Shown here: positions 22,932 to 43,304 of the stretch, one piece after another
How the letters are laid out: the number at the start of each line of letters is the position of its first letter
How positions within the stretch are numbered: position 1 is the stretch's first letter
DNA from: Candidatus Sericytochromatia bacterium
GTDB taxonomy: Bacteria; Cyanobacteriota; Sericytochromatia; UBA7694
DNA: 64,000 bases
Reading direction: 5' to 3'
Assembly: GCA_963797915.1 (NCBI GenBank)
Contig: CAWCRG010000017.1
Location: 299,074-363,073 of the forward strand
Program-made: the position numbers and the translations under genes
Notes under the pieces: model-generated
Seen by the model: only the letters and a program-made list of their open reading frames with translations
Database searches by the model: none
Told to the model about the DNA's origin: nothing

Positions 22932-23249
22932 ATGATACTGCTTACAAATATTGAAACGATTCCCGGTAAAAAGATTGTTGAACATTATGGTGTTGTCAGC
23001 GGAAGCACGGTCAGAGCTAAGCATGTAGGCCGTGACTTTATGGCCTCGCTTAAGAATTTGGTGGGTGGAGAATTGACGGGCTATACTGAATTACTCAGTG
23101 AAGCACGGGAAGAAGCCACGAAACGTATGCGTCAACAAGCTGAGGCGCTGGGGGCCAATGCCGTCGTGAATATTCGCTACTCAACATCTTCGGTGGCAGC
23201 CGGTGCTGCCGAACTTTATATTTACGGCACGGCAGTGCGGATAGAGTAG
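22932..23249 (+). CDS. YbjQ/UPF0145 (DUF74) family protein
   Basis: 105-aa protein with the family-typical GGELTGYTELLSEAREEA and IYGTAV segments. Confidence 0.7.
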   Translation: MILLTNIETIPGKKIVEHYGVVSGSTVRAKHVGRDFMASLKNLVGGELTGYTELLSEAREEATKRMRQQAEALGANAVVNIRYSTSSVAAGAAELYIYGTAVRIE

Positions 23250-23258
23250 GTACTTACG

Positions 23259-23738
23259 ATGGCACTCGTTCTTAATTTAATTATTTTTCTGGGACTCCTG
23301 GCCATTGGCTACTTTTTTGGACAGCAAGCAGAAAAAAAACACTATCTCAGTATTAACGCCCGTGAAAAAGAATACCGCGCCCTGCCTTTGATTAATCTCA
23401 AAAATCCTGATTTTTTAGAGCAAGATGTAGAATTAGCGGTACTGGTCACCGGCAATATGGTGGTGGCCGTGGATTATTTTAAAGTCTTTGTGGCGGCCTT
23501 GCAAAATCTTTTTGGGGGCCATGTTACGCAGTACGAGCCCCTTGTGGATAGAGCCCGCCGGGAGGCGACGTTACGTATGCAGGAAGAAGCGCTGCGTCAC
23601 GGGGCCGACTTGGTTATGAATGTGCGTTTAGATACCAGCTTTTTGGGCGATATGCACAAACGCAAATCGGGTGTGGGCAGTATTGAGTCGATTGCTTATG
23701 GCACCGCCATTCGCTACAAAGCCAAGCAGCTGTCTTAA
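23259..23738 (+). CDS. Membrane-anchored YbjQ/UPF0145-like paralog
   Basis: N-terminal TM helix followed by a YbjQ-like domain (GGHVTQYEPLVDRARREA… AYGTAIR). Confidence 0.6.
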   Translation: MALVLNLIIFLGLLAIGYFFGQQAEKKHYLSINAREKEYRALPLINLKNPDFLEQDVELAVLVTGNMVVAVDYFKVFVAALQNLFGGHVTQYEPLVDRARREATLRMQEEALRHGADLVMNVRLDTSFLGDMHKRKSGVGSIESIAYGTAIRYKAKQLS

Positions 23739-24567
23739 TGCAGTACGTTCCGACACCCCTTCCCGAAGAAAATGTGAATGTCTCCAGGCGCTCGCCGCTT
23801 TGGGATTTGACCACTCTATTGGGTGGTGTGTTATTGATTTTGCTTTTGGTCTACTGGCTGCTTGGTTTTGCGGTGGATTATTATGTGCCGCGTCTTTCCA
23901 TTGAAAGAGAATCCCAGCTGGGGCAGTCTTTTTCAACGGCTTTTGAGCATGAGCTTACGGCGGTTCAGGCTCGAAAACAGGCCTACTTACAAAACCTAAT
24001 GAACGCTCTCGTCAAAGAAAAATACGGGAACACGCCGCATTTGGATTATCGTATTCATCTCAATCCAGAGCCCGAGTCCAATGCTTTTGCTTTTCCCGGG
24101 GGGCACATCGTGGTCATGGAGGGCCTGGTGGATCAGGCCAGTTCTGAAAATGAGCTGGTTTTTGTATTGGGCCATGAAATGGGACATCTGCATCATCGTC
24201 ACAATTTGCGTGCCATGGGGAGAAGCTTGATCTTCTCTATCATGACAGAAGCTGTTTTGGGGGGACCAGCGGCATTAGCAAAAATGTATCCAGCTTTACG
24301 CAGGGCTTGCAATATGGTTTTTCTCGGGCCCAGGAGCTAGAGGCTGACCTCACGGGGATTGATGCGAGTTATGCCCATTATCATCATGTGGGGGGGGCGC
24401 TAGATTTTCTGACGCGCCATCAAAAGGAAGCGGGCTTTGCCGGTTCTCAACTCGGACAGTATTTCGCCTCTCATCCCCATCCTGAGGGCCGCATTGAGCG
24501 ATTAGAAGCGCAGTTTGCCCAAAACCAGTGGACGTTAAAACCCATCAAACCCCTGCCCAATTTTTAG
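23738..24567 (+). CDS. M48-family zinc metallopeptidase, reading frame interrupted near 24290-24305
   Basis: HEMGHLHHRH (HExxH) lies in ORF 23738..24340. The downstream FSRAQELEAD motif typical of M48 lies in ORF 24307..24567 in another frame. A single frameshift joins them. Confidence 0.6.
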
Positions 24568-27862: not shown

Positions 27863-28380
27863 GGGTTGTTACTTTCTATTGAAACGTTATAGACCCATCC
27901 CAAAGCCGGGGTCCAGTTTACTTCGGCCAGACGCTTTGCTGACAAGAGGGGCGGATGCAGGTCAAGTTGTGCAGATAGCTCGCTCAAGAGCATTTCTATC
28001 GCCGAGGGCACAGCTGTTGGCATGGATATTGTCTCCTTGATGACTTGTGTTAAACGGAGCCCCTCGTCGTTGTAGGTCCATTGTTTCTGATCAGCGGCAA
28101 ACGTATACTCCCATTCTCCCCACAGGTTTTTATCCACCCACTGGCCTTGAATACCGATTAGTTGAATCCCCGTGCCGGTGTTTTCTTGCAGCATGCTGTA
28201 ATACGCTCTGGCATAAGCGCTCAGAGCATCTCGCTTCCCGTTTGTGCCTTTGCTTAAAAGGGGGAGTGGTGGGTCGGCGTCTCCTGGGGGATTTGTGTCG
28301 CTGGCATTTGGTAAGGCGCATCCAGAGTTTGCGCAGAGCAAAAGGCCCGCAAGCAGGTGAAAAAATATTTGCTTAATCAT
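27859..28380 (-). CDS. Lipoprotein, hypothetical
   Basis: Signal peptide with lipobox (LLCANSGC); stop overlaps the menA start. Confidence 0.5.
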   Translation of the reverse strand: MIKQIFFHLLAGLLLCANSGCALPNASDTNPPGDADPPLPLLSKGTNGKRDALSAYARAYYSMLQENTGTGIQLIGIQGQWVDKNLWGEWEYTFAADQKQWTYNDEGLRLTQVIKETISMPTAVPSAIEMLLSELSAQLDLHPPLLSAKRLAEVNWTPALGWVYNVSIESNNP

Positions 28381-28542
28381 TGTTTAATAAACTTAAATTG
28401 TTCTTACCTCTCATTTTAACAGGCAAAACAGCTACTTTCATTAACTTTTTTGATAAAGCGTCTAAAAAACGCTTGCAATTTAAGATTAAAAATATTAAGA
28501 TAAAGATAACAAAGTTAAATAAAGATTATGCAGGTTAAATAA

Positions 28543-28998
28543 ATGCGTTTAAGCACCGCCCAGAACACACAAAACTTAGGCACTTTTCACTTTCAGGACA
28601 CCGCTTTTAAATCCGGCGATAGCAGCAAGGACCGCCAGTCTGGTAACGCGATGTATGCGCCTTATGAGCAGGGTGATCAGGTTCATTTTCAAAACCGCAC
28701 TGCGCCTCTGCATTATGCAGCACCGGCTCAACCCTCTGAACTGATGCTTTTTATTGAGCGTTTACTTTCCCTCGATATTCGTTTTTATACCTCTATTGTT
28801 GCCACCGTATTGTTTGCGGTTTTTCTCCAGGCCTTCAGTGGCTTGAGCGTTGTGCTTGTGGCACTCATTGCCGTTCCCTTCTTTTTGGTGTGGTATGTCA
28901 TGAGCTTCTTTAACTTTCAACGGGTGATGGATAATGTAAACCATGCTCAGGCCATGCGATCTCGCCAGCACAGTATGCAGATTCCTGCTACTTTTTAA
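28543..28998 (+). CDS. Hypothetical membrane protein
   Basis: 151 aa with two hydrophobic helices in the C-terminal half; followed by a terminator. Confidence 0.4.
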   Translation: MRLSTAQNTQNLGTFHFQDTAFKSGDSSKDRQSGNAMYAPYEQGDQVHFQNRTAPLHYAAPAQPSELMLFIERLLSLDIRFYTSIVATVLFAVFLQAFSGLSVVLVALIAVPFFLVWYVMSFFNFQRVMDNVNHAQAMRSRQHSMQIPATF

Positions 28999-29021
28999 AC
29001 CCTTTAAACTTTGATTTAACC

Positions 29022-29057
29022 TTGCAAGACCGTTTTTAATAACGGTCTTTTTTTTTG
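29022..29057 (+). terminator. Rho-independent terminator
   Basis: Stem caagaccgtt…aacggtctt followed by a T9 run. Confidence 0.45.
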
Positions 29058-29163
29058 TGTAAAAAAATAGGTGTTTACAATAAGTATTTTGTTGACTTTA
29101 TGTAAACAAATGACTATAATAAAATTAGAACACGAAAAATCGTTTTCAAAGGAGAAATTATTT

Positions 29164-30306
29164 ATGCTATCTCGTCACCTGCTTGCCGTCATTGCTACCA
29201 GTCTATTGCTCAATGCCTGTGTCTCATCCCCTACCCTTACGCCTGCACCTGCTCCCGGCGGTGTGTCGTCGTCAATTACGCCTCAACGTCCTGTATTGGC
29301 TTCTGCGCTCCTTAAGCGTCCATTACGCCTGGGGCGCATTGATGGGCAAGTCGTTCCTCTGGCAGAGATTGCAGGGGCTGACGCTGCTTTTGCCGTTAAA
29401 ATGGATATTGCCGTAGGTGCTGCGATGGCAGAGCCCGCCATTGGCCGCATGCCGATTGCTCCCGGTTATTATTATGGCGGCCATGACTTTAACAGCTACA
29501 GCATTCAGTATGCTGAAGAAAATATTTACCCTGCTGCCCAGGGTAGCGGAATGATTGCCGTTTATAACCAAAGCGTTAAGCCGATTATGGCTGAGTGGGA
29601 TGCCGACGCCCGTTTATTAGAGTCTCGTGCTCAACAAAATGGTGAAAACGAAGAGTATATCCAGTTTCCGGGTAAAGATGAGCCCATTCGATTAAAGCCC
29701 CGCTTTGTTTATCGTCTGGCTTCTAACGCCAAAAAAGAAACCTTAAATGTTTATGTCCTGGATAAAGAGATTCGCGTTCACCGCATGGTTTGGGGCGAAC
29801 AAAACATTGAGATCACTCGCGTGAAAATTGACTCCGATGCTGCGTTAAACATTGCTCGCCGTGCTTTTTCCAATAAGCAAAATCCTTCCGGTATTCCGGT
29901 TTACCCTGAGGCAAATAATCCCGAAGCAACAATGATTATTTATGACATCCCTCAGGATATTCAGTGGAACCTCAATTTAAATCAGCAATCACGGGACAGC
30001 CTGCGTTATTTTGTGAATATTAATTTTGAAATCAAGTCCGAAGCGCTGCCTGAACCCATGCCTTCGCGAGCTGACAATGGAAACGATCCTGAAATTGTTT
30101 ATCCGCAAGAAAATCAGTATCTTTACGGTTCAGTAGAAATTGACGCCATTACTGGTGAGATTAAGTCGATGAATCGCCCGGTGGTTTACCCCATGTACCG
30201 TGGTGGTCCCGTTGCTTATGATGGTGGTAAGCCTATGCCCGTAGACGTTATTGCGTCAGCCGATGCTGATGATGTTGTGTCATCAGCCCCTGCTGATAAA
30301 GAATAA
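29164..30306 (+). CDS. Lipoprotein of unknown function (paralog A)
   Basis: ATG at 29164 is preceded by AAGGAG. Lipobox LLLNAC. The C-terminal half is homologous to the next gene (KKETLNVYVLDKEIRVHRMVWG). Confidence 0.55.
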   Translation: MLSRHLLAVIATSLLLNACVSSPTLTPAPAPGGVSSSITPQRPVLASALLKRPLRLGRIDGQVVPLAEIAGADAAFAVKMDIAVGAAMAEPAIGRMPIAPGYYYGGHDFNSYSIQYAEENIYPAAQGSGMIAVYNQSVKPIMAEWDADARLLESRAQQNGENEEYIQFPGKDEPIRLKPRFVYRLASNAKKETLNVYVLDKEIRVHRMVWGEQNIEITRVKIDSDAALNIARRAFSNKQNPSGIPVYPEANNPEATMIIYDIPQDIQWNLNLNQQSRDSLRYFVNINFEIKSEALPEPMPSRADNGNDPEIVYPQENQYLYGSVEIDAITGEIKSMNRPVVYPMYRGGPVAYDGGKPMPVDVIASADADDVVSSAPADKE

Positions 30307-30317
30307 GGAGTTGTAAA

Positions 30318-31436
30318 ATGATGAATCGTATGTTTTCTATTCAGCCTCTGTTAGTCGCCCTGAGCTTTAGCGTGCTTGTGGCCTGCCAATCGGCACAGAC
30401 CCCCGGGCAAACGCCGGGCCCCTCTCCGTCATCAACGCTTCCTTCACCGGTGGCATCGGCAGGTACAGACACGAATGTCTCTGCTTTATTTCCCAATGCG
30501 CTCAGCAAGCGCAGCTTGTCACCGGCCTCTTTTTCCGAAGGTCAGAACGCGCAGGATACTGCGGCTCCCGCTGCTTCTGAATCCAGTAGTGGCGCCGCTG
30601 CGCCTCGTGCTCCTGGGGCCGCCCCTGCCGGTGATGTCGCTGTGGGTAAAATGATTGCCCCCGGCTATTTTGGCAGCCCTTTTGATCAGGTGGAGCTGAA
30701 GTTTGTCGAGGAACTTCGTTTTGCCGCGCCAGAAGGCAACAGTTTGTTAAGTACCTATAAGCAGGATATGCTTCCCCTGGTGAACAGCTGGGATAGCGAG
30801 GCTCGTTTGCTCATGAGTGCGGCCTCAGAAGGGCAGGAAACGTATTACCTGCCCAATGAAAAGCAAGAATCTGAACAGGTGGCGGTTAACTTTTCGTTTC
30901 AGTGGGTGTCTAACGCGAAACAAGAAACCCTGATGATCTATGTTTTAGACAAAGAAATTCGCATGCACCGTATGGTGTGGGGGCCTCCCAATATCGATAT
31001 CAGTCAGGTAAAAGTAGATACCGCAGATGCGATGGCTCGCGCTAAAAAAGCGTTCTCTGATCGCAGCAAAGATCCGGGGTACCCCGTTTATCCTGAATCC
31101 AACAGTGTGGATCCAAACATTCGTATATTGTATGCTATACCTGAAGATGCTTCCTGGGATATTTCTTTGAACGAGCAACAGGGTAAGCTCCGCTATTTTG
31201 TATCGGTTAACTTTAAAGTGAACGATGCGGCTTCACAGCGGTCAGATATTTATGCAGGGGGTTTTATTGAAATGGATGCCATGACAGGAAAAATAGAGCA
31301 GTTGAATCGTCCCACGTGGTATGAGTGGAGTGACCGTGAACCTCAATTCTCAGAGGGTTCTACCGGCTCAGCCATTTCTTCACCCCCTCTACCTCCTGAA
31401 CCCATGCTCATGACGCCTGCTGAGGGCGTAAGATAG
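30318..31436 (+). CDS. Lipoprotein of unknown function (paralog B)
   Basis: Lipobox VLVAC. A low-complexity Ala/Ser/Pro linker is followed by a domain homologous to paralog A (KQETLMIYVLDKEIRMHRMVWG). Confidence 0.55.
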   Translation: MMNRMFSIQPLLVALSFSVLVACQSAQTPGQTPGPSPSSTLPSPVASAGTDTNVSALFPNALSKRSLSPASFSEGQNAQDTAAPAASESSSGAAAPRAPGAAPAGDVAVGKMIAPGYFGSPFDQVELKFVEELRFAAPEGNSLLSTYKQDMLPLVNSWDSEARLLMSAASEGQETYYLPNEKQESEQVAVNFSFQWVSNAKQETLMIYVLDKEIRMHRMVWGPPNIDISQVKVDTADAMARAKKAFSDRSKDPGYPVYPESNSVDPNIRILYAIPEDASWDISLNEQQGKLRYFVSVNFKVNDAASQRSDIYAGGFIEMDAMTGKIEQLNRPTWYEWSDREPQFSEGSTGSAISSPPLPPEPMLMTPAEGVR

Positions 31437-32623
31437 TGCCCCGAAGAAAAGCCAATGGCGCAGGGAAAACACCGTTTTCTCTGCGCTTGCGGGCCCTGCG
31501 CAAACAAAGTCAGCTGAAAATGGATCAGCTGGCCGAGGCCGTGGGTGTTTCTAAATCCTTTATTTCATTATTAGAGTCGGGGGGGCGACAGCCCTCTCGT
31601 GAAGTGGTCTTAAATTTATCGGAGGCGCTGTTTTCCGCGCTCTCTGATCATGAGGACGATGGACACGATCAACTGCGCGATGAGTTATTAATTTTGGCTG
31701 GGTTCATGCCCGTTAACCCCCGTGCAGTTAGTGCTTATCGTGATACGTTGCTGGTGTATCAACAAGCCCTTGCCGAAAATCCTGACGATTTTCGGTTGTT
31801 TTCGCGTTGGTTGCTGGCCCTGATTCGTGCAGAACGTCAGGAAGAGGCCTACACCCATATTCAAGAGGGCCTTCAACGTTTTCAAGAAACCGCCTATATG
31901 CAGTGTCTTTTGGCACACCTGGAGTTAAGCAAAGGCAATTACGAAGCCGCTTTAATCAATCAAGAAAGTGCGCTCAAGCACGTTCGGCAGCAACCGGCTC
32001 CCCATTTAACCGAAGCAGATCTCATCTTTAATCTGGGTGCTATCCATTTTTTGATGGGCCATAAAAGTATGCGTGAAGGCGATCAAAAAATCGCTTTAAG
32101 TCATTATGAGCAGGCCATTGAAAACATGGAAGCATCGTTAGCTCTGGCTGAATCAGATATTTATGTGCTCGACGAATATGCCCGCCTATTGTTTAACCGC
32201 GCCTACCTCACCCAGGAGAATGCTCATTGGGAACAAACCATACAGGCTTATCGTCGTGTACTTATAGACCCAAAGAAAGCAGCCCTGGGAGTGAGTGCGC
32301 TGCGAGAGTCAGCTGCGTTTTTAGCCCATGCCTATACGCAAAACCAGGATTTTGCTACCGCAGAGCTTACCCTTGGTTTGCTGAGCGCTTTTCAAGCAGA
32401 ATACTGGTTGGTGAACTATTTACAAGCCTGTCTTTATACGGCGATGTTTAAATCTTCACAACAGGACCCCTGGCTAGACCGGGCTTTGCAGGCCTTAGCC
32501 GAGAGCCTGAAGCAGTCACCAGACCGGGTGCGAGAGGAAGCCCTGCACGATCCCGACCTACAGTTGCTTCGCGAGTGCCGCGCCCAAGACTTTAACCGAT
32601 TACTTAAGGAGAAAACCCGATGA
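31436..32623 (+). CDS. XRE-family HTH transcriptional regulator with TPR-like C-terminal domain
   Basis: HTH segment LRKQSQLKMDQLAEAVGVSKSFISLLESG. The C-terminal region is helical and repeat-like. The start overlaps the upstream stop. Confidence 0.6.
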   Translation: MPRRKANGAGKTPFSLRLRALRKQSQLKMDQLAEAVGVSKSFISLLESGGRQPSREVVLNLSEALFSALSDHEDDGHDQLRDELLILAGFMPVNPRAVSAYRDTLLVYQQALAENPDDFRLFSRWLLALIRAERQEEAYTHIQEGLQRFQETAYMQCLLAHLELSKGNYEAALINQESALKHVRQQPAPHLTEADLIFNLGAIHFLMGHKSMREGDQKIALSHYEQAIENMEASLALAESDIYVLDEYARLLFNRAYLTQENAHWEQTIQAYRRVLIDPKKAALGVSALRESAAFLAHAYTQNQDFATAELTLGLLSAFQAEYWLVNYLQACLYTAMFKSSQQDPWLDRALQALAESLKQSPDRVREEALHDPDLQLLRECRAQDFNRLLKEKTR

Positions 32624-34398
32624 ACAAGCACCCTTTAATCGCTACCGCATTCTTACTTTCATTGACCCTCTACACTGCCTGTAGCGCCCAAAACACTCCC
32701 TCTACCGTCAGCCCCAATCCCTCTGTTGATGCCAATGGTAATATTACTCCTTTTCCCAAGGGCCCCAAAGAACTCGACGGTATTATGCTGCCGAATGACG
32801 CATCACTTAACGCTGGTAATGGTCTGGGTAGTCGCAAAAGCAATGACGGCCTCATAAACGATAGCGCCGCAATGGTAGGCATAGAAGCGCCTGCTGCGCC
32901 GCCGATGGCAGAGTTTGCCCCGGGCGACGATGCCGCGGATGATTTCTCTACACCGGCTCCTCAGCCTACACCCACTCCGCAAAGTGAGGAGACTCCTTCG
33001 GATAACTCGCCCGAAACTTCGGTAGTGGAAGCGCAAAACTTTTTTTATTTTTCTTATGATGACTCAGCCAGTACGGCGGGTGTAGAGCAAACCAAGTTTG
33101 CCCTTGAGCGCAGTAGCCCTGTGCTTCCCAATCCTTCCTGGGTAAGGCCCTGGGAGTTTCTCAATTACGAAACCTTTACCCCGCAAAAGCTGACGACGCT
33201 AGGTACTTTTCAAGTGGCCATGGGTGTCTGGCAACACCGTGTACCCGGAAGTAATGATCCCAATACGCTCGCCGAGGAGCAAAGTGCTTATGATCTGGGG
33301 ATTCAGGTGAAAACGCCTGAAGTGAGTAAGGCAGATCGGCAAAATATCGTCTTGACGCTTCTACTGGATGTTTCTGGATCGATGAAAAGCCCCTCGGTGC
33401 AATTGAGTGAGTCGCAGCAGGTTCCTGACCTTTTAGCGGTGGCTAAAGCGGGCTTGCGCAAGTTGCCTGAACAACTCAAAGCCGGTGATGTGGTGAATTT
33501 GGTCACGTTTTCGAATGCGGCGACGACCCGTTTGGAGTCCTGGGCTTATACCGGTGAGGATACCCAGTGGCAATCCGTTGTATCGGCGTTAAATACCGAA
33601 GGGGGCACTAACCTTAATATTGGATTAGAGAAGGCCTACGCGCTGGCGCAGAAAACCTATAACTCTGCCAAAACCAACCGGGTGATGATGTTGACCGATG
33701 CTTTTGCCAACCAGGGGCAGGTGAATGCCGATATTGTGGCGCGCAATACCCAGATTAATAATGCCGAAGGCATTTACTTTTCGGGTCTGGGCCTTGGCGC
33801 TGATTTTAATGAGGGCTTTTTAAACACCCTTACCGAAGCCGGTAAGGGAAGCTATACCGCTTTAATGAGTACCACTGATGCCGAGCGTGCGTTTGGTGAG
33901 CGTTTTATTTCACTCACCCAAATTGCGGCCCGTGACGTGCGCTTTCGCCTGGATTACCCTGCTGCCTTGCAGCGTACGATCTCTGCAGCGGAGCAATCCT
34001 CTCAGGTGGCCAGCGAGGTGGACCCCATCCACTTTGCAGCCAATAGCTCTCAGTTTTTCTTAGAGCGCTTTCAGGCCGATGGTGAGGGTAACGTTAACGG
34101 AAGTATCAAGTTGACGATTGCCTATACCGATCCCGTCACCGGAGCAGAACGCGAAGAGGTGCAGTCGCTACCCCTAAGCGACCTGTTAAATCAGGAGCTA
34201 CCCAGTATTAAAGATGCCCGTATGGTGACGTTGCTGACCCAGCTGATTCAGGGCAAGGTGTCTCCAGCGGCAGCGCGTGTAGAAATGGATGCACTGCTTA
34301 ATACCCATAGCAGTGCATTGGCCAACACCTATAAAAAATATATTGAAACCTGGTTGTCTTTAGCTCAGGGCAATCAAGACACTGTTTCAGAACCTTAA
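32620..34398 (+). CDS. von Willebrand factor A domain lipoprotein
   Basis: Lipobox LTLYTAC. A MIDAS-containing vWA core (VLTLLLDVSGSM… TNLNIGL… MLTD). ATGA overlap with the upstream gene. Confidence 0.65.
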   Translation: MNKHPLIATAFLLSLTLYTACSAQNTPSTVSPNPSVDANGNITPFPKGPKELDGIMLPNDASLNAGNGLGSRKSNDGLINDSAAMVGIEAPAAPPMAEFAPGDDAADDFSTPAPQPTPTPQSEETPSDNSPETSVVEAQNFFYFSYDDSASTAGVEQTKFALERSSPVLPNPSWVRPWEFLNYETFTPQKLTTLGTFQVAMGVWQHRVPGSNDPNTLAEEQSAYDLGIQVKTPEVSKADRQNIVLTLLLDVSGSMKSPSVQLSESQQVPDLLAVAKAGLRKLPEQLKAGDVVNLVTFSNAATTRLESWAYTGEDTQWQSVVSALNTEGGTNLNIGLEKAYALAQKTYNSAKTNRVMMLTDAFANQGQVNADIVARNTQINNAEGIYFSGLGLGADFNEGFLNTLTEAGKGSYTALMSTTDAERAFGERFISLTQIAARDVRFRLDYPAALQRTISAAEQSSQVASEVDPIHFAANSSQFFLERFQADGEGNVNGSIKLTIAYTDPVTGAEREEVQSLPLSDLLNQELPSIKDARMVTLLTQLIQGKVSPAAARVEMDALLNTHSSALANTYKKYIETWLSLAQGNQDTVSEP

Positions 34399-34461
34399 AA
34401 TGCTTGGGAGCATTTTGCCGTATACTATGAGGGTGAAAGGCCTTTCTGGTGATGGCGTGTC

Positions 34462-35160
34462 ATGATCTTTAACTTTTTTCGGCGCAATAAACCTCAGTCT
34501 CCTGCTTCAGCTGAGCAATTTCCTTTTTTTGCTTCTAAAAAAGAGCTAGAAGGCTCTAAGGCCTTGCCTTTGCTGAATGAGGTTGAGGCTGAACTGCTGC
34601 GTTTACAAGGGCTAGGCGAGAAGCAGTTGCTTACACCCGGTGATCAAAATCGCTATACAGAACTTCAGCAGCAGCATCGTGAATTGCTGGGTAGTGGTCA
34701 GCTTAACGCACCCTTATCCACAAGTCTGCTGGTGTCAGAGCAAGTTCAGCCGGGTGATCTTGCCGATGAGTGGATGCGACCTACGGCAGCGGCCCACGTT
34801 TTATTGGTGGAGGACGACCGCGATTTATCTGAAATGCTCAATTTTTGTTTGCACCGTATTACCACTCAGGTCACGGTATTGCACGACGGAAACGCCGCAG
34901 TGGAATGGATCGCTCAAAACGATCCTGTGGATTTAATTTCTTTGGATCTGATGCTTCCCCGAAAAGATGGTTTGCAGCTGCTGCATTATATTCGTGCCCA
35001 GCCCGCCTGGGAAAAAGTGCCGATTTTGGTCATGAGTTCTAAATCTGATGAGTCTACGGTACAGACAGTCCTTAATGCTGGTGCAAATGTTTACCTCACC
35101 AAACCCATTCAGCCCGATGCTTACCTGGCACAGGTTCAAAAGCTGATGGCTGACCAATGA
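34462..35160 (+). CDS. Protein with C-terminal response-regulator receiver (REC) domain
   Basis: LLVEDD acidic pocket, phospho-acceptor Asp in ISLDLMLP, conserved Ser (VMSSKSD) and Lys (YLTKP). The N-terminal ~110 aa are of unknown function. Confidence 0.6.
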   Translation: MIFNFFRRNKPQSPASAEQFPFFASKKELEGSKALPLLNEVEAELLRLQGLGEKQLLTPGDQNRYTELQQQHRELLGSGQLNAPLSTSLLVSEQVQPGDLADEWMRPTAAAHVLLVEDDRDLSEMLNFCLHRITTQVTVLHDGNAAVEWIAQNDPVDLISLDLMLPRKDGLQLLHYIRAQPAWEKVPILVMSSKSDESTVQTVLNAGANVYLTKPIQPDAYLAQVQKLMADQ

Positions 35161-35173
35161 GTAGCTGATCACG

Positions 35174-36235
35174 ATGGGTACGCCATTGCAATGGTTGCTG
35201 GTGGTTGTTTTTTTTGATATTTCCCTCATTTTTGCCTTGTTGCTGTGGCGTTTGGTTTTACGCACGCAATCAAAGCGCAAGCTCGCCTTTATTAAGCAGT
35301 GGCGCTCCGTGTTGATGGGTTATGCCATGGGGCAACCCTTAACCGCTTTACCCCTGCTTAAACCCCGAGATCATAGCTTGTTCTTTATGTTGTGGAACGA
35401 CACACAGCAGCAATTGGTGGGCTCTGCCAGCCCGCGTTTAAACCAGTTGATTCAAGACCTCCAGCTGGTGCCAGAGGTTCTCAGACGTTTGCGTCGGGGC
35501 AATTTGCGAGAGCAGATGGTGGCCTGTCAAACTGTGGGCCATCTCGAAACTTTACAAGAAGCGTGGCCCTCGCTGGTGCATTTGGCTTTTGAAGGCCATG
35601 ATCGACTGGCTTTTTTTGCTTTGCAGGCTTTAATTCAGATGAGTCCAGAGGCTGCGTTACCGGTGATTTTAGATATTATGAGCACCGGTGGAGCAGCGCC
35701 TGCACGACTTTTGGGGCTGTTTCGTCGCTACCCATCTGGCGCTCTGGTGGAACCTCTCCTGGGGTTTCTACAAGAAGCCCTTTATGCGCATGATCTTAAG
35801 CGATCTTTGCATATTATTGCGCTCTTGGAAGTCCTGCCTTTTCCTTCGGTGTTGCCCACCATGCGCCAAATTTTGGTAGAAGCGACGGATCCAGAGCTTA
35901 TTGTCAGTTGTTTGCAGGTGATGACAGATTTACACGACCCCTGGTGTCTTGGCTTGAGCTTGCCCTATTTAAACCATCCTGATTGGCGGGTGCGTCAACA
36001 CGCGGTTGCTGCTCTTGGCAAAGTTGCCCAGGGTCCACAGGTTCCTGTACTGCTAAAGGGTTTAGAAGACGACTCGTCCTGGGTGGCTCAGGCAGCCTTA
36101 GAAGCCCTTTGGGAACTTCCCGGATTTCGCCGAGAGAAGTTACAGCAACTCAGCCGTGAGCATGGAAGTGCTCGGGTCAGAGAGCGTCTTCAGCAGTTTT
36201 TTGCAGAGCAGCAGGTGTTCACCCACCATGCTTGA
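35174..36235 (+). CDS. HEAT/PBS-lyase-like repeat protein with N-terminal membrane anchor
   Basis: N-terminal TM helix, then repeated helical HEAT-like units (…DWRVRQHAVAALGKV…). Confidence 0.5.
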   Translation: MGTPLQWLLVVVFFDISLIFALLLWRLVLRTQSKRKLAFIKQWRSVLMGYAMGQPLTALPLLKPRDHSLFFMLWNDTQQQLVGSASPRLNQLIQDLQLVPEVLRRLRRGNLREQMVACQTVGHLETLQEAWPSLVHLAFEGHDRLAFFALQALIQMSPEAALPVILDIMSTGGAAPARLLGLFRRYPSGALVEPLLGFLQEALYAHDLKRSLHIIALLEVLPFPSVLPTMRQILVEATDPELIVSCLQVMTDLHDPWCLGLSLPYLNHPDWRVRQHAVAALGKVAQGPQVPVLLKGLEDDSSWVAQAALEALWELPGFRREKLQQLSREHGSARVRERLQQFFAEQQVFTHHA

Positions 36236-37607
36236 ATACTTTTTTACCGTCTATTTTGTGTTGCTCAACAGCAGTTACTTACTGCTCAATTTAATTGGGG
36301 CCTGCAGCATCATTCGCCGTCGGCCCACTTATGAGTTATCTCGTTTGCCGATGGACTACGGGCGTTTTGAGCCTGCTGTCAGCGTTTTAGTGCCCGCTTA
36401 TAACGAAGAACAAACCATTGTAAGCGCCTTACAATCGGTATTACAGCTGGAGTATCACTGCTATGAAGTCCTGGTGATTAACGATGGATCGAAGGATCAA
36501 ACCCTCCAGGTATTAACGACTCACTTTGAACTACAGCCCATGCCTCTGCCTCCTGTTGAGGGGTTATCGACGGCGGAGGTCAACGGTTTTTATCGCTCGC
36601 GCCGCTATCCTTTTTTGCGTGTCATAGATAAGGCTAACGGGGGCAAGGCAGACGCATTGAATGCGGGTGCAAATCTCGCCCGGTATCCATTGGTGTGTTG
36701 TCTGGACGCCGACTCGATTTTACAGCGCGATAGCTTACGTGATGTGGTGCAGCCTTTTATTGACGGGGTTGATGTGGTTTGTTCAGGCGGAACGGTGCGG
36801 GTGGCGAATGGCTCTGCGATTCGGGACGGATTTTTAGATGCTGTGGGCATCTCAAATCATCCGCTGGCTTTGTTTCAAACGGTGGAATACCTGCGCGCGT
36901 TTTTGTTTGGTCGCGAAGGCTGGTCGCCTTTTAACGCCTTGCTGATTGTGTCCGGTGCTTTTGGCGTTTTTGATCGCGAAGTTTTACTTGAAGTGGGCGG
37001 ATATCGCCGACAAACCATTGGAGAAGACATGGAGCTTACGGTGCGTTTGCACCGGTTTATGTCCCAACGAAAACGGCCTTACCGAATTCAGTTTTTGGCG
37101 GAGCCTGTGTGTTGGACCGAAGCCCCTGAAGATTTAGGCACCTTACGCAATCAGCGTATTCGCTGGCAGCGTGGTTTGTTGGAGAGCTTATGGCTCAACA
37201 AAAAACTGCTGTTTTCTCCCCGTGGAGGCTTTGCGGGCAATGTTGCCTTTCCCTTCTTTTTGATTTTTGAGGCCGTTGGCCCACTGATTGAAGTCGCTGC
37301 TTATCTCTTTATGTCACTGGGCGTATTATTCGGATATGTTGACACAGACAGCCTGGTGCTGTTTACGATAGCCTCTATCGGTATGGGGATGACCATGTCG
37401 ATTAGTGCGCTACTCATGGAGGAAGTTTGTTTTCATATGTACCCGCGTACCCGTCAGGTCATGGTGCTCATTGCTTTTGCACTCTTAGAAAACCTGGGGT
37501 ATCGCCAGTTGAACTCATGGTGGCGTTTGCTGGGGTTATACCAATGGTTGACGGGCCAACAGCAGCAGTGGGGAGTGATGAAGAGAAAGGGAAATGAGCG
37601 CGCCTGA
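36228..37607 (+). CDS. Family 2 processive glycosyltransferase (PgaC/IcaA/NodC-like beta-glycan synthase)
   Basis: DGSKDQT (DxD-like), LDADS, and QRIRWQRG (QxxRW) motifs with flanking TM helices. ATG at 36228 overlaps the upstream stop. Confidence 0.7.
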   Translation: MLEYFFTVYFVLLNSSYLLLNLIGACSIIRRRPTYELSRLPMDYGRFEPAVSVLVPAYNEEQTIVSALQSVLQLEYHCYEVLVINDGSKDQTLQVLTTHFELQPMPLPPVEGLSTAEVNGFYRSRRYPFLRVIDKANGGKADALNAGANLARYPLVCCLDADSILQRDSLRDVVQPFIDGVDVVCSGGTVRVANGSAIRDGFLDAVGISNHPLALFQTVEYLRAFLFGREGWSPFNALLIVSGAFGVFDREVLLEVGGYRRQTIGEDMELTVRLHRFMSQRKRPYRIQFLAEPVCWTEAPEDLGTLRNQRIRWQRGLLESLWLNKKLLFSPRGGFAGNVAFPFFLIFEAVGPLIEVAAYLFMSLGVLFGYVDTDSLVLFTIASIGMGMTMSISALLMEEVCFHMYPRTRQVMVLIAFALLENLGYRQLNSWWRLLGLYQWLTGQQQQWGVMKRKGNERA

Positions 37608-37623
37608 AGTTTAAGCGGCTCTG

Positions 37624-38154
37624 CTAGGACACCCGTTGTTGCGGCAGTGGCGCGCTTTCCACAAATTGTCGAACGGCCTGCAGGTCTTCTGTTTGGAGAT
37701 CTTCGGTAAAGGCTTGCCCAGCAAATTTGGCCTGTTCTCCGTGCTGTAAGACCAGCAGGAGCGCATTAAGATGATGGGCGCTGAAATGGCGATCATAGGC
37801 CTGGTTGTGAAAAAATTGAGAGAGCTCGCTGCCGGTATAACTGGTGATACTTAACTGGTAATGGTCACTCAGATAAAGGCGTAAAATGTGCTCTAATTTG
37901 ATATAAAAAGATTCCGGGTTATGGGGCTGGGGCTTTAGTTTCTTGAGGGCTTTAAGGGCCTGATCGCGAGGATCTTTTTGAGGGACTGCTTTAACGGGCG
38001 CTGTTTTAATAGCGGACTTTTTACGTTTGAGCAATTTCCAAAGGATAACGCCAATCACGCTGAGCAGCAATAATAAAATGAGCCCAAAAATAGTGACGCT
38101 CAACCACGGGAAGTCCATACCCATCAGCGGTTTTAATCCGTGAATATCTTCCAT
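37624..38154 (-). CDS. Single-pass membrane hypothetical protein (DUF4381-like?)
   Basis: One TM helix near the N-terminus; 176 aa; 1-bp gap to the downstream gene. Confidence 0.3.
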   Translation of the reverse strand: MEDIHGLKPLMGMDFPWLSVTIFGLILLLLLSVIGVILWKLLKRKKSAIKTAPVKAVPQKDPRDQALKALKKLKPQPHNPESFYIKLEHILRLYLSDHYQLSITSYTGSELSQFFHNQAYDRHFSAHHLNALLLVLQHGEQAKFAGQAFTEDLQTEDLQAVRQFVESAPLPQQRVS

Positions 38155-38155
38155 G

Positions 38156-38662
38156 TTACCTCAACCTGTCTGTGTCATTTAATCCCTGCTCAAACAAAGC
38201 CACGTTGGCTGGCCAGGCGGCAATCTCATCTCGCCCTAGCATACGTTTTAATTGCCATACAATGCTGTTGGGCTGGCAGCAGGGAATATGGGCGAGTAAA
38301 ACCCCCAGGGTGAGCATATTTAAGCCTTGCTCAAAGTTAAGTGCACGCGCCTTCTGTAGCCATCCATCGGCATAGGCATCAATCCGTAGCGCATCTTCTG
38401 ATTGAGGGGGGGTTAAATCTCGCACGCCGGGGTGTAGATAAATCAGGGCGTTATAATCCTGGGCTTCGCTCAAGTTAATGCGCTGGGTGTCCATGAGTAC
38501 TGAGGCCACAACCCGGCCACCGCGGATTCCCCACTCCGGGTCACTACGACTCATGGCAAATTTTTGTTCGTGAGAGAGTGCGCGACACAGCAATTGGGCC
38601 ATAAAGCTGACGCCCTGTCCTCCCTGTCCGGCGATCCATAAACGCAGAGGGAGTGAGCTCAT
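38156..38662 (-). CDS. 2-oxoacid:ferredoxin oxidoreductase gamma subunit (POR_G type)
   Basis: IAGQGGQG motif characteristic of pyruvate/2-ketoisovalerate:ferredoxin oxidoreductase gamma subunits. Confidence 0.65.
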   Translation of the reverse strand: MSSLPLRLWIAGQGGQGVSFMAQLLCRALSHEQKFAMSRSDPEWGIRGGRVVASVLMDTQRINLSEAQDYNALIYLHPGVRDLTPPQSEDALRIDAYADGWLQKARALNFEQGLNMLTLGVLLAHIPCCQPNSIVWQLKRMLGRDEIAAWPANVALFEQGLNDTDRLR

Positions 38663-39375
38663 ATAAACGATCTTTCGTGGCGAAAAACGCCCAGGGGAAA
38701 TTTGCGCAGTACTCTTTTTTCGAGTCGCTCGCGAGCCTCTACAGGGCTACAGTCCCAGTAAGGAGGACACCAGCCCAGGACTTCGACAAAGCTAATGCCG
38801 GGGCCGCTACTTTGAAAGTCAAAGGCATTGATGAGCGCTGTTCGGGCTTGCTCGACGGCCTGAGGGGTGTGCAGTGCGACCCTTTGGGCGAATCCTATAC
38901 CGGGAAAGTGAGCCACTGTTTCTGTCAGCTTAAGGGGGGCACCCATGCGAGAGTGCGAGCGGCCTAAGCGCGTGCTGGTGGTGATCTGGCCCGTTAAACT
39001 GGTGGGGCTCATTTGCCCACCACTGCCGGCCATCACCAGATTATTTAAACAAATGACGGTAATGGATTCCTGACGAGAGGCGACACTCATTAAGGTATCA
39101 AGGCCTCTGGCTGCCAGATCGCCATCTCCCTGATACGTAAAGACAAGCCGTTCCGGGCGGGTGCGTTTTAATCCCGCCGCGACCGCAGGAGCTTGTCCTG
39201 CAGTGGCAGATACAAAGGGTATATTAAAGTATTGCCCCATCGCTTCACTACAGCCGCTTCCACTCACGCCAATGGCGGTATTGCGTAAGTCCTGGGGTTG
39301 AAACTGCTCCAGGACTTCTGCCAGTAAGACTTGAAGTTGGCTGTGGGTACAGCCCGCACAGTAAGCAAAACTCAT
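38659..39375 (-). CDS. 2-oxoacid:ferredoxin oxidoreductase beta subunit (TPP-binding)
   Basis: YCAGCTH and GDGD motifs; overlaps the gamma gene start. Confidence 0.7.
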   Translation of the reverse strand: MSFAYCAGCTHSQLQVLLAEVLEQFQPQDLRNTAIGVSGSGCSEAMGQYFNIPFVSATAGQAPAVAAGLKRTRPERLVFTYQGDGDLAARGLDTLMSVASRQESITVICLNNLVMAGSGGQMSPTSLTGQITTSTRLGRSHSRMGAPLKLTETVAHFPGIGFAQRVALHTPQAVEQARTALINAFDFQSSGPGISFVEVLGWCPPYWDCSPVEARERLEKRVLRKFPLGVFRHERSFI

Positions 39376-39418
39376 GGGTCAAGCTCCTCTCGAGAGGGTT
39401 TGATCTGGAGCTGCTCCA

Positions 39419-40372
39419 TTAATGTGAGCTGTAGCCCCACGGGAGCCGAGCGTTCCCAGGGAATTTTGAGGGGGCGCAAAGCATAGTGGGGTAATGTTGA
39501 CGGAGTTGTTCCCAGAGACAGCCGGGTTCAAACTCCACCACATAGAGCGGAAGATCCACGGGGTAATGCTCGGGAAGTGTTAACACTCCGGGATATAAGC
39601 TGTCGAGTACCAGCACCGCATTGTCCTTCCAGTCCATCTCTAATAGCCAGCCGCCCATGGCTCCGGTCGCAATTAAGGCATAGTTTGGCGACGATTCGGG
39701 GCTCCAGTGCCGTAACCAGCGGGAGGCCAGTTGCTGGAGTTGTTGATGCTTTTTCTGGGCTCTGCGTAAGACATTGTTGCCCTGAATGGGGGGCAGCGCT
39801 AATGCTATCCATTCTGCATCTTGTACACTCTGTGTCGTACTGAGGAGCATGGGGTCGAGCAATAAAATAACCGGCTGGCGCAGGTATGCTGCCAGGGCAA
39901 AGGCTTCCTGCACGTTGTTTTGTACATGACTCAGGTGAGAAGGCATTAAATGGGGAAAGGGGAACCCGCTCCCGGGCCAGGCGTTTTGGAAACAGGCATA
40001 GCCGTAAGGGAGGGTAGAGGCACCGCGGTATTCCGGTGCTTGATAGAGCACCACCGCATAAACACAGGGAATCTCCTGCTGAAAAAAGTGAGCTAAGCCA
40101 TGTTGCACACTGAGAAAGTCGCTGTAATTGCTGCTAATAAACGGAATGTCTCCGAGCTGCCCTACCCCCTGAGCCATTGACAGCGCCTCAGTGGGCGTTT
40201 GGGTTTGCAAACAGATCCCGTGATGTTGTTGAAAACGGGTGAGTCCTTCATTGAGGAGCAGTGACTGCATGGGACTGGGACTTCCAAAATAATGGCGACA
40301 GCCGCTTTTAAGGACTGCTTCAATACACATTTGAAAGCCGTTGTAGACGGCAGCGTGTTGTTCAACAATCAT
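39419..40372 (-). CDS. 2-oxoacid:ferredoxin oxidoreductase alpha subunit (divergent, short)
   Basis: N-terminal AVLKSGCRHYFGSPSP resembles the PorA AGCRFFAGYPITP segment. At 317 aa it is shorter and more divergent than typical PorA. Confidence 0.5.
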   Translation of the reverse strand: MIVEQHAAVYNGFQMCIEAVLKSGCRHYFGSPSPMQSLLLNEGLTRFQQHHGICLQTQTPTEALSMAQGVGQLGDIPFISSNYSDFLSVQHGLAHFFQQEIPCVYAVVLYQAPEYRGASTLPYGYACFQNAWPGSGFPFPHLMPSHLSHVQNNVQEAFALAAYLRQPVILLLDPMLLSTTQSVQDAEWIALALPPIQGNNVLRRAQKKHQQLQQLASRWLRHWSPESSPNYALIATGAMGGWLLEMDWKDNAVLVLDSLYPGVLTLPEHYPVDLPLYVVEFEPGCLWEQLRQHYPTMLCAPSKFPGNARLPWGYSSH

Positions 40373-40683
40373 GGGTTAGTAGACTGCCCGTTCCAGAACT
40401 TGTGAAATCTTAGACTCAGACCAAAGACATAACCCTTGATGTTTTTTTGCGGAAAAGCGGGCGCAATAAATGCGTCATCTGGACAAATATCAACGCAATG
40501 CATGCAGTTAATACAATATTCAGGCCACTGCATTTGCACCGGAAGAAAACCCTGAGCATTTGCCTCTGTGTGGACGCCTGCCTCTTCAAAAAGTGCGTTG
40601 GGACAGACATTGATGCACAAGTTACAGCCTTTACATTGTTCGCTGTCTAACTGGACGGTGTTCAGATGTTCTGCAGTTCTCAT
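40369..40683 (-). CDS. 2x[4Fe-4S] ferredoxin (oxidoreductase delta subunit)
   Basis: Two CxxCxxCxxxCP motifs (CKGCNLCINVCP; CINCMHCVDICP). Overlaps the alpha gene start. Confidence 0.7.
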   Translation of the reverse strand: MRTAEHLNTVQLDSEQCKGCNLCINVCPNALFEEAGVHTEANAQGFLPVQMQWPEYCINCMHCVDICPDDAFIAPAFPQKNIKGYVFGLSLRFHKFWNGQSTNP

Positions 40684-40798: not shown

Positions 40799-43304
40799 AT
40801 GTCAGATCAATCCAGAGAGCGGGATCTTGTATTGGCCCCCAATGAGTATGCCTTTATTTCGGATCAAACCAAAGGCAATATTAATGTGTATGTGGGCCCC
40901 TACAAAACCAGTTTGGCCAATACAGATCAGCCGGTGTTTTTTGATGAGCAGAGCAAACGCTTTGATCGCTGTGGCTTAGAGCAGGCCACGCGGGTTTTTG
41001 CCACCGCCCCTGAAGGATGGTATATCACCCTTAAAAACCCTGCCGGTGACCAAATGCAGCCTAAAAATGGCACGGTTAATAATTTGCCCGATCTGCAGGT
41101 GGGGCATAAGATTAATTTACCCGGACCGGTTTCTTTTGGCTTATGGCCCGGACAAATGGTGAGGGTACTTAAGGGGCATCACCTGCGCTCTAACCAGTAT
41201 TTACTGGTGCGCGTCTATGACGAAGCCTCAGCCCGCAGTAACTGGACACGGGCCGTGATGAAGCTTCAGGGCAATGTGCCCGAAGAGGGGCTGAATCTGA
41301 AAAGCGCTGCTGAAGAAACGTTAAATCTTGGACAGGAAATGGTGATTCGAGGCACCGAGGTTTCTTTTTATATTCCCCCGACCGGTATTGAAGTTGTTAC
41401 TGACAGGCAGGGCGGGTTGGTGAGAGAAGCGGTAACGTTGGAGCGACTTGAGTACTGCATTTTATTGGATGAAGACGGCAATAAACGCTATATTCAGGGG
41501 CCCGATGTGGTCTTTCCTGAGCCCACAGAACGTTTTGTGGAGCGGCAAGTGAGCGGTGTGCTCTGTAAAAAGTTTCGGGCTGTCGAACTCAATGAAAATA
41601 GCGGCATTTACGTGAAGGTGATTGCGCCCTATACGTCTTCTGACGGCGATAAAGTAACCCAGCATGGCGTGGGCGACGAACTGTTTATTACGGGTAAAGA
41701 TCAGATGATTTATTTTCCGCGCCCGGAACATGCGGTGATTAAGTATGGTGCCCAGGATATTCACTATGCGGTGGCCATTCCTGCGGGCGAAGGGCGTTAT
41801 GTGATGGAGCGTAACACCGGGCAGATTAGACTGGTAAAAGGGCCCCACCATGCTGCTGCCTGACCCCCGGCGAGAGGTCATGATACGGCGCGTACTGACC
41901 ACGCCCCAGGTGCGTCTGTGGTTTCCGGGCAATGCCGAAGCGATGGAGTATAATCACCAATTGCAGGAACTCTTAGCCGATGAAAAGGGAGCTTCGGTAT
42001 TGCCCCTTTCTGTACCCCTTGCGCCGACGGGTGGGCCTGCGGATGCAAAATCTCGCAGCGCTGCCAAATCCTCAAAAAGAGAAGTTACTCCCGCGTTGGC
42101 GGGTGAGGACTTTCATCGCAATACGCAGTATACGCCACCTCGGACCATTACCTTAAACACCAAGTATGATGGGGCGGTCGCGGTGTCCATCTGGACTGGC
42201 TACGCGGTGCTCGTGGTAAGTAAAACCGGAGAGCGTAAAGTCGTGGTGGGTCCACAAACCTACCTGCTGGCGTACGATGAAGCCCTGGAGCCCATGGCTT
42301 TATCTACGGGATCTCCCAAAAGCGAGTCTCAATTGCTTAAAACCGTTTACTTGCGGGTGTTGCACAATAAAATCTCCGATAAAATTCGTGTGGAAACGCG
42401 CGATCTGTGCGAGGTAGAGATTCAGCTTTCTTATCGGGTGAACTTTGAGGGCGATTCCCAATACTGGTTTAATGTGGAGAACTATGTCAAGTTTTTGACG
42501 GAGCATATGCGTTCTCGCATTCGCAACGCGGTCAAGCAGGTGGGTGTGGAAGCTTTTTATAGTCAGGCGGCTGATATCTTGCGCGATACCGTGCTGGGAG
42601 TCAGTGACGGACAACGGACCGGCTGCACCTTTGCTGAAAACGGCATGCGGGTGTATGACGTCGAGGTGCTCAATGTCACGCTGGTGGACCAAAGCGTGGA
42701 GCAATTGTTGATTGCCGCGCAACGGCAAGGGGTTGAGCAGACCTTGCAACTCAACGCCGAACGGCGCAAGCTGGACTTTGTGCAGGCTGAAGAGGTCGTC
42801 AAGCGAGAAATGTCTGAAGCCCGCATTCTCACGGAGACTCAGCATCATGATATAGAGCTTGAACGCTTACACCGTCAGCAGGCCTTACAATTGCAGCAGT
42901 TAAAAAGCCAAAGTGAAGCAGAACAAACCCGCCTGCTCGGCGAATTGGCCAATCAAGAGCAAATGAGTGCGGTGCATGAGGCTGAGTTAATGCGAGAGCG
43001 GGTGCGTTTAGAGCAGGAGTTGGCCATGGCTCACGAACGGACGCAGCAGCGTCTGATGCTGATGCAGGGTGAGGTAGAGGCGATGGCCCGCAAAGCAGAA
43101 GCCATTTCACCTGACCTGATTGCTGCTTTACAGGCTTTTGGCGATAAAGCGCTGGCGGAGCGCATGGCGGCATCGATGGGGCCACTCGCCATTCTCGGCG
43201 GCAATAGCGTGGCCGATGTCTTGTCCCAGCTGCTGGGCGGTACCCAGCTCGAACACCTTGTGCGCAAGGCGATGCCCCTCATGGGCCATATTACTGAAGA
43301 CTGA
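40799..43304 (+). CDS. Major vault protein (MVP) homolog, single gene with apparent frameshift near 41845-41865
   Basis: The N-terminus (LVLAPNEYAFISDQTKGNINVYVGPYKTSLANTDQPVFF) parallels the first MVP repeat of eukaryotic MVP ([38 protein letters not shown]). The C-terminal ORF parallels the MVP shoulder/cap-helix region (…VDQSVEQLLIAAQRQGVEQTLQLNAERRKL…). Combined length is about 835 aa. Confidence 0.6.

Follow-up and report, generated by a model that had tools for sequence, protein, structure and literature searches.

A putative receiver-controlled polysaccharide synthase cassette with a HEAT-repeat partner adjoins a separable lipoprotein module in a Candidatus Sericytochromatia genome

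Introduction

Seven closely packed genes on the forward strand of a Candidatus Sericytochromatia genome (GenBank assembly GCA_963797915.1, contig CAWCRG010000017.1), the last of which encodes a family 2 glycosyltransferase (GT2), raise the question of whether they build one polysaccharide system or merely stand side by side. The genes occupy positions 29164-37607 of a stretch of 64,000 nucleotides (nt; contig positions 299,074 to 363,073), which is called the window throughout. They encode, in order, two lipoproteins (A and B), an XRE-family regulator, a lipoprotein with a von Willebrand factor A (vWA) domain, a protein with a response-regulator receiver (REC) domain, a HEAT-repeat protein and the GT2 (Table 1). 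The initial annotation, which was made from the sequence alone, took all seven for a single polysaccharide or adhesion module.

Sericytochromatia are non-photosynthetic, diderm relatives of cyanobacteria. Synthase-dependent systems for cellulose, poly-N-acetylglucosamine (PNAG), alginate and Pel are central to biofilms, and the well-studied ones are switched by cyclic di-GMP (c-di-GMP). The reading favoured here, with somewhat better than even confidence, is that genes 5-7 would encode a polysaccharide synthase under phosphorelay control, with a cytoplasmic HEAT protein as its obligate partner, beside a separable and unrelated envelope module (genes 1-4) with which it is probably co-transcribed. 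The main value of the locus lies in the REC-HEAT-GT2 cassette, widespread and apparently unstudied, and not in the seven-gene arrangement: the novel-looking accessory set of the window is the neighbouring, lineage-specific envelope module, which stands outside the conserved synthase machine.

Gene context in Sericytochromatia

Gene context was compared at loci that encode a relative of the GT2 or of lipoprotein A. Locus L085 (78% GT2 identity) has the order lipoA-lipoB-XRE-vWA-TPR366-REC-HEAT-GT2, followed by convergent CAP and DUF4381 genes. TPR366, an extra gene for a secreted TPR protein of 366 amino acids (aa) that is also found in L089, sits exactly at the 63-nt gap of the window. The cassette occurs without the lipoprotein block in L086, L002 and L003 (65-71% GT2 identity), where the genes around REC-HEAT-GT2 are unrelated and the upstream four are missing, and also in L001 and in L005-L084. 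The converse was found in L089, which carries lipoA-lipoB-XRE-vWA-TPR366 and then, directly, convergent genes. Its flanks are those of the window (Orn/Lys decarboxylase, UbiA and a 151-aa protein; DUF4381, a four-subunit 2-oxoacid:ferredoxin oxidoreductase and a vault-like protein), and no REC, HEAT or GT2 gene was found within 21 kb. In L087 and L088 the four-gene block is followed by unrelated genes. Judged by gene context, the run was thus shown to comprise two separable modules, split at the 63-nt gap, and the initial proposal of one functional seven-gene module was not supported.

A tree drawn from protein identities has the form (window,(L085,L089)), with the cassette present in the window and L085 and cleanly absent from L089, so either L089 lost the cassette cleanly or the cassette was gained on two occasions. 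TPR366 and the CAP gene were lost from the window with no remnant left; in L085 and L089 the CAP-domain gene lies beside DUF4381. The GC content shows no anomaly across the cassette, and hence no compositional sign of its recent transfer.

We consider it unlikely that all seven genes form one polysaccharide or adhesion system, in which the lipoproteins and the vWA protein would replace a porin as export or anchoring parts and the XRE protein would regulate the operon. Such a system fits the tight spacing over the whole run, the single strong promoter with no convincing internal terminator or promoter, the order retained in L085, and a HEAT gene with a GT2 nearby, at 2.5-5 kb from the block, in L087, L088 and the P0160 locus. 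The window also lacks the YaiO-type barrel of many diderm relatives, so that some other export part would be needed. It is hard to square with L089, where the block is complete between identical flanks and the cassette is missing, with L090, where no HEAT or GT2 gene was found in the 10 kb upstream of the block (the downstream side ends at the contig end), and with the cassettes that stand without the block in L002, L003, L086 and all 80 listed loci outside the Sericytochromatia. Nor does the lipoprotein itself look like an export part: a fold search with the AlphaFold2 (AF2) model of lipoprotein A (predicted local distance difference test score, pLDDT, 68.8) gave weak matches to small PepSY/YpeB/DcrB-like folds of a generic alpha+beta kind, no Wza-, PelC-, AlgK- or PgaB-like match and nothing export- or modification-like.

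The cassette in other bacteria and in archaea

Relatives of the cassette, which we favour as a unit of its own, were collected by a GT2-alignment scan with one genome per species. The scan gave at least 80 loci outside the Sericytochromatia (L005-L084, 41-57% GT2 identity), and the cassette counts below cover loci among the matches listed. The HEAT family was recovered with a profile built on the open reading frames (ORFs) of the loci; a word-based HEAT search gave only 8 relatives. YaiO-family barrels were counted with the strict first-round profile; the iterated one drifted into TPR proteins.

The scan found the cassette in Proteobacteria, Nitrospira, Gemmatimonadota, Myxococcota, Bdellovibrio, Bacteroidota-like groups, Bacillus, Paenibacillus, Clostridium and others, and plasmid records added Mesorhizobium, Deinococcus and haloarchaea. 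The HEAT gene lies directly upstream of the GT2 gene, on the same strand, at 79 of the 84 loci with room for it, and nearby at the other five; its stop codon abuts or overlaps the GT2 start at 63 or more of 78 loci. On gene order, the HEAT-GT2 pairing was shown to be obligate, with the two genes abutting or overlapping.

A receiver-containing protein is encoded upstream of the GT2 at 64 loci, and the receiver is always its last domain. Proteobacteria have a bare receiver of about 130 aa, with the gene for a YaiO-family barrel usually next in line. Gemmatimonadota, Firmicutes and others have it at the C-terminal end of longer proteins, REC-GGDEF-REC or Hpt-REC-GGDEF-REC (GGDEF in 10 and Hpt in 9 of 24 multi-domain receiver proteins). 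A YaiO-type outer-membrane barrel is present at 39 cassette loci and is a frequent addition in diderm relatives. Judged by these comparisons, the association of the GT2 with receiver and HEAT proteins is conserved far beyond chance.

Other genes come and go around this core. The order annotated in RefSeq for Mesorhizobium is histidine kinase (HK)-response regulator (RR)-RR-YaiO-HEAT-GT2; three Xanthomonadales loci (L013, L020, L021) have an HK-REC-YaiO-HEAT-GT2 cluster, and Deinococcus has TPR-HEAT-GT. What follows the GT2 gene varies (YaiO 5/34, TPR 4/34, kinases 3/34), and no conserved deacetylase or hydrolase was found among these 34. On a plasmid of the haloarchaeon Halosolutus gelatinilyticus (L092, 3510-9559), RR-(86 aa)-HEAT-GT is directly followed by genes for a sugar-phosphate nucleotidyltransferase and for glmS. 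This hints that the substrate is a UDP-N-acetylhexosamine (UDP-HexNAc) and that the cassette has moved between domains of life. A literature search found no published study describing a REC-HEAT-GT2 cassette, and RefSeq names its parts generically only.

The GT2 synthase

The initial annotation called the GT2 a PgaC/NodC-like processive enzyme, and the class stood. The protein matches the Pfam families Glycos_transf_2, Glyco_tranf_2_3 and Glyco_trans_2_3, and carries the motifs DGS86, DAD160-162, GED265-267 and QRIRW309-313; the D, DxD, GED and QRIRW are invariant among 21 aligned sequences of the family. Hydropathy predicts three helices (residues 5-23, 336-354 and 376-394) and one more hydrophobic stretch past residue 400, which gives a single transmembrane helix at the N-terminus and at least two at the C-terminus. 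Against BcsA structures the C-terminal half gives a weak match (E about 1e-9), aligning with BcsA residues 318-440, which comprise the catalytic gate and channel (GED, QxxRW, interface and transmembrane helices); no solved structure close to the GT2 was found. By motifs and helices, the GT2 is of the processive, membrane-embedded synthase class (BcsA, PgaC, NodC and hyaluronan synthase), and it would presumably share the channel function of that class. It is not a dolichol-phosphate-type transferase, the other class that had initially been considered.

Its scores against curated NCBIfam families lie far below the cut-offs: 129.3 bits against 422.3 for the best match, PgaC_IcaA (TIGR03937), 59.1 against 699.1 for cellulose synthase (CelA; TIGR03030), and 38.2 against 550 for NodC (TIGR04242). 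The GT2 is therefore an equivalog of none of the three and, on profile scores, no orthologue of PgaC, BcsA, NodC or any named synthase; its closest named relative comes from a Melainabacteria HGW bin. Searches with Pfam and NCBIfam detected no PilZ, MshEN or GGDEF domain in the GT2 protein and, as first annotated, no PgaA, PgaB, PgaD or BcsB homologue among the seven proteins, nor PilZ in any of them. The strict profile detected no YaiO-type barrel anywhere in the window.

An N-acetylhexosamine polymer is weakly hinted at by the PgaC-like similarity and by the one glmS-linked archaeal locus. As a clue to the substrate, the linkage to glmS and the nucleotidyltransferase was judged too weak to name the polymer.

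It is very unlikely that the GT2 product is instead a membrane glycolipid or a short lipo- or chito-oligosaccharide, of the kind made by monoglucosyl-diacylglycerol synthase or NodC, with the HEAT and REC proteins regulating envelope remodelling. The QRIRW and GED motifs and the C-terminal transmembrane region align with the channel-forming part of BcsA, the best family match is a PNAG synthase, and 39 relatives have a linked outer-membrane barrel of the YaiO or TPR kind, implying that a polymer is carried through the outer membrane. What a glycolipid product would account for is the weak NodC match, the generic GT2 matches, the window having no porin, deacetylase or hydrolase gene beside the GT2, and the annotation of Xanthomonas XagB-like GT2s as monoglucosyldiacylglycerol synthases (PMC4643136).

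The receiver and HEAT-repeat proteins

The synthase reading leaves the two partner proteins to be accounted for. In the REC protein, Pfam places Response_reg at residues 113-225 with 83.8 bits (cut-off 30.2). The acidic pocket (EDD), the phospho-acceptor D162 in SLDLMLP, the SSK and the K214-P215 pair are all conserved, so that by sequence this is a canonical receiver domain. Residues 1-110 drew no Pfam match even at E up to 1, and only L085, L086, L002 and L003 share them; a canonical C-terminal receiver behind an N-terminus of no known family is also how the protein had been described at the outset.

The HEAT protein, annotated from the start as membrane-anchored, has one N-terminal transmembrane helix ahead of its repeats and matches HEAT families only (HEAT_2, 54 bits, over the cut-off). 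Its AF2 model (pLDDT 87.4) consists of a long N-terminal helix followed by an alpha-solenoid; match and model together identify a predicted HEAT-repeat alpha-solenoid. A fold search with the model returned generic HEAT/ARM solenoids only, which point to no specific function. In 90 family members about 4.7 Lys/Arg residues follow the N-terminal helix and 0.7 precede it, a bias that places the solenoid in the cytoplasm.

The suspicion of a PilZ- or GGDEF-like c-di-GMP site in the HEAT protein or in the REC N-terminus found no support: Pfam recognised no PilZ, MshEN or degenerate GGDEF domain in either. We regard it as quite unlikely that control is by c-di-GMP and not by phosphorylation, with the HEAT protein or the GT2 binding c-di-GMP as PgaC/PgaD do and the receiver only tuning a cyclase. 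The idea gains from the REC partner being often GGDEF-fused in other phyla (the 10 of 24 proteins above, some of them weak-scoring and perhaps degenerate). It loses from the window REC protein having no GGDEF domain and 110 N-terminal residues of no family, from the bare receiver of most proteobacterial relatives, and from the generic HEAT fold, with none of PilZ, MshEN or GGDEF detected in HEAT or GT2.

The nearest kinase candidates in the window are two tandem paralogous 7TMR-DISM sensor histidine kinases (671 and 664 aa; 14614-18704, + strand), which, at about 15 kb upstream, are candidate partners of the orphan receiver.

Proposed mechanism

Under the favoured reading of a phosphorelay-controlled synthase, the GT2 would polymerise a nucleotide-sugar at the cytoplasmic face of the membrane and thread the chain through its own C-terminal transmembrane channel, as its homology to BcsA/PgaC-type enzymes in motifs and topology suggests. 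The HEAT protein would be anchored by its N-terminal helix, packed against the synthase, with its solenoid in the cytoplasm, and would be made in fixed proportion with the GT2 through the abutting or overlapping stop and start codons. It may thus be an obligate stoichiometric co-subunit whose solenoid docks the receiver domain. A histidine kinase encoded elsewhere would phosphorylate the receiver and so switch the synthase on or off post-translationally, and this switch would stand in for the c-di-GMP control exerted through PilZ or PgaD in cellulose and PNAG synthases. Where the receiver is fused to GGDEF or Hpt, this switch could be connected to c-di-GMP or to phosphorelays of several steps. 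The locus itself encodes no outer-membrane porin.

Several points weigh against this reading. The contacts of the HEAT protein with the REC protein and with the GT2 are read from gene order alone, the HEAT fold model is generic and shows no ligand-binding signature, and no cognate kinase adjoins the REC gene in the window. The glmS linkage occurs at one archaeal locus only, with one further nucleotidyltransferase match elsewhere. As to separability, the window and L085 keep the 4+3 gene order over about 60-78% protein identity, and in L087, L088 and the P0160 locus the HEAT gene that lies 2.5-5 kb upstream of the block encodes a distant relative of 513-517 aa. This gene is convergent with one for a 465-466-aa GT2 in L088 (3541-6491) and in the P0160 locus. 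The GT2 near the block in L088 is 38% identical to that of the window; the one in L087 (1959-7465), a TPR-GT2 fusion of 1110 aa, gave no BLAST match to it. Since a HEAT gene with a GT2 nearby flanks the block in these three loci, the two modules may have a looser functional or neighbourhood link within the Sericytochromatia.

More tentatively, and short of an even chance, the cassette might represent an undescribed synthase class, found in many phyla and a haloarchaeon, in which a membrane-anchored HEAT subunit, cytoplasmic and indispensable to the synthase, relays the phosphorylation state of a receiver directly to polymerisation. Cellulose and PNAG synthases, gated by c-di-GMP, would then have a counterpart gated by a phosphorelay. 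The invariant HEAT partner and the linked receiver suggest a control logic unlike c-di-GMP switching, and the cassette is very widespread, with culturable carriers in Massilia, Stutzerimonas, Mesorhizobium and Bacillus.

The lipoprotein and regulator block

Genes 1-4 are, from the relatives found, an envelope module seen only in Sericytochromatia. Lipoproteins A and B are paralogues, as first annotated (36-40% identity, E about 1e-58 to 1e-61). Both, like the vWA protein, have a signal peptide with a lipobox Cys and are predicted to be lipidated; the lipobox Cys19 is invariant among 31 lipoprotein homologues. The family is small (45 word-search matches; 105 clusters among 1.84 billion representatives), its named members are all Candidatus Sericytochromatia, and the A/B pair is kept in L085, L087, L088, L089 and L090.

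For the XRE-TPR regulator of the initial annotation, Pfam bore out the helix-turn-helix (HTH) part (HTH_31/HTH_3; HTH_31 at 43.5 bits) and not the TPR part, TPR_12 staying at 23 bits, below its cut-off of 30. The vWA assignment, including its metal ion-dependent adhesion site (MIDAS), was upheld by VWA_2 (41.6 bits, cut-off 27), a further match to VWA and the motif DVSGS at residues 250-254. Orthologues of the vWA protein follow the XRE gene in L085, L088, L089 and the P0160 locus, and a divergent one does so in L087. YfbK-like flanking domains, suspected in this protein, were dropped: Pfam at E up to 1 gave no support.

The membrane protein of 151 aa encoded upstream of the block has no Pfam family over the cut-off. 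Orthologues of 147-151 aa precede lipoA in L087, L088, L089, L090 and the P0160 locus (73.5% identity to that of L089, 45.8% to that of L087).

Gene layout and transcription signals

The coordinates of the run and of its borders are collected in Table 1. As claimed initially, the seven genes are consecutive on one strand, the junctions between their ORFs being, in order, +11, -1, -4, +63, +13 and -8 nt; the XRE gene thus overlaps both neighbours with its start and stop. The longest GT2 ORF opens at GTG 36156; the start was set at ATG 36228 because the database copy (P0001) has 459 aa. A seven-gene same-strand run is by itself not unusual: the window holds a longer one of 11 ORFs (13050-24340).

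Table 1. Features of the seven-gene run and its borders (positions in the window).
Feature	Position	Strand	Details
Membrane protein, 151 aa	28543..28998	+	own terminator; conserved upstream neighbour of the lipoprotein block
Intrinsic-terminator-like hairpin	29026..29056	+	9-bp stem, then T-run TTTTTTTGTG; hairpin with T-run at 29026-29049; closes the upstream gene 28543..28998
Sigma-70-like promoter	29092..29120	+	TTGACT-17-TATAAT; 11/12 consensus matches
Lipoprotein A	29164..30306	+	380 aa; lipobox LLNAC
Lipoprotein B	30318..31436	+	372 aa; lipobox VLVAC; paralogue of lipoprotein A
XRE-family HTH regulator	31436..32623	+	predicted cytoplasmic; TPR-like helical-repeat C-terminal part
vWA/MIDAS lipoprotein	32620..34398	+	592 aa; lipobox YTAC
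Junction of the two modules	34397..34456	+	two adjacent hairpins in the 63-nt spacer
Response-regulator (REC) protein	34462..35160	+	Response_reg at residues 113-225
HEAT-repeat protein	35174..36235	+	HEAT_2; predicted membrane-anchored, cytoplasmic solenoid
GT2 synthase	36228..37607	+	459 aa; start ATG 36228; predicted membrane-embedded
DUF4381 gene	37624-38154	-	convergent with the GT2 gene, 16 nt from its stop

The promoter ahead of lipoprotein A is the sole strong + strand promoter-like site within 28000-38500, and an AGGAG ribosome-binding site precedes ATG 29164. No + strand promoter-like site was found ahead of the REC gene, and internal terminator-like matches were not clearly over shuffle expectation (19 against 12.9 +/- 3.5). 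Co-transcription of all seven genes from this one promoter is plausible on these signals.

The 63-nt spacer between the modules folds with a minimum free energy of -24.4 kcal/mol (z = -2.57; 3 of 200 shuffles as stable). Neither of its hairpins has a proper U-run after it; the second spans the likely ribosome-binding region of the REC gene and could therefore be a point of translational or attenuation control.

Other features of the window

A 484-aa protein with Major Vault Protein shoulder, Vault_3 and SPFH/Band 7 domains is encoded within 40799-43304 (+), preceded by a 354-aa ORF of no family; L089 has a vault-like gene of 828 or more aa at the same place, and vault-like proteins are unusual in bacteria. 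Two gene sets for 2-oxoacid:ferredoxin oxidoreductases, at 18772-21634 (+) and 38156-40683 (-), are consistent with an anaerobic or fermentative lifestyle; one has a fused POR/POR_N subunit and a thiamine pyrophosphate (TPP) subunit, the other is of the four-subunit type with its own ferredoxin subunit.

A 546-aa protein of the GH3 family (acyl-acid amido synthetase-like) is encoded near two Rieske oxygenases (5463-9525 and 13463-14539, +); GH3 proteins are familiar chiefly from the conjugation of plant hormones. The GC content, about 0.50 on average in the window, dips to 0.38 at 60001-62000, overlapping the 3' end of a 912-aa ORF without a Pfam family (58462-61200).

Comparison with known systems

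The closest likeness in parts is to PgaABCD/IcaADBC. Shared features are a membrane-embedded synthase-translocase with D, DxD, GED and QxxRW, for which PgaC_IcaA is the best curated family, a membrane partner gene directly adjoining the synthase gene, as with the small PgaD/IcaD, and, in cassette relatives, an outer-membrane barrel, sometimes with TPR, as in PgaA. The seven proteins include no PgaD/IcaD, no PgaB/IcaB deacetylase and no PgaA, and no deacetylase is conserved in the relatives. The partner here is a predicted cytoplasmic HEAT solenoid and the linked regulator a receiver, whereas in Pga c-di-GMP acts at the PgaC-PgaD interface. With BcsA-BcsB, the cassette shares the aligned C-terminal half of the GT2 and, as expected logic, the post-translational gating of a processive GT2; it differs in that the window genes encode no BcsB and no PilZ domain, the GT2 having none because the protein ends at 459 aa.

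A further probable resemblance is to E. coli NfrB/NfrA, whose synthase-type GT2 goes together with an outer-membrane barrel and has a second-messenger switch of its own. In 39 relatives a YaiO-family barrel accompanies the GT2 family studied here; the cassette has no MshEN domain, and the window encodes no barrel. For gene 3 of the neighbouring block, the RNPP regulators (PlcR, Rgg, NprR), known from Firmicutes, offer a possible parallel in their XRE-type HTH followed by a helical-repeat sensor domain; it differs in that its TPR match is below the threshold and no peptide gene was identified.

Xanthomonas xagABCD is a GT2-centred operon that contributes to biofilm and is repressed by diffusible signal factor (DSF)/RpfG signalling (PMC3609779). 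Compared by literature description only, it is a lead. Judged by sequence, the cassette would work like the Pga, Bcs and Nfr synthase-dependent systems and yet belongs to neither Pga nor Bcs and probably not to Nfr.

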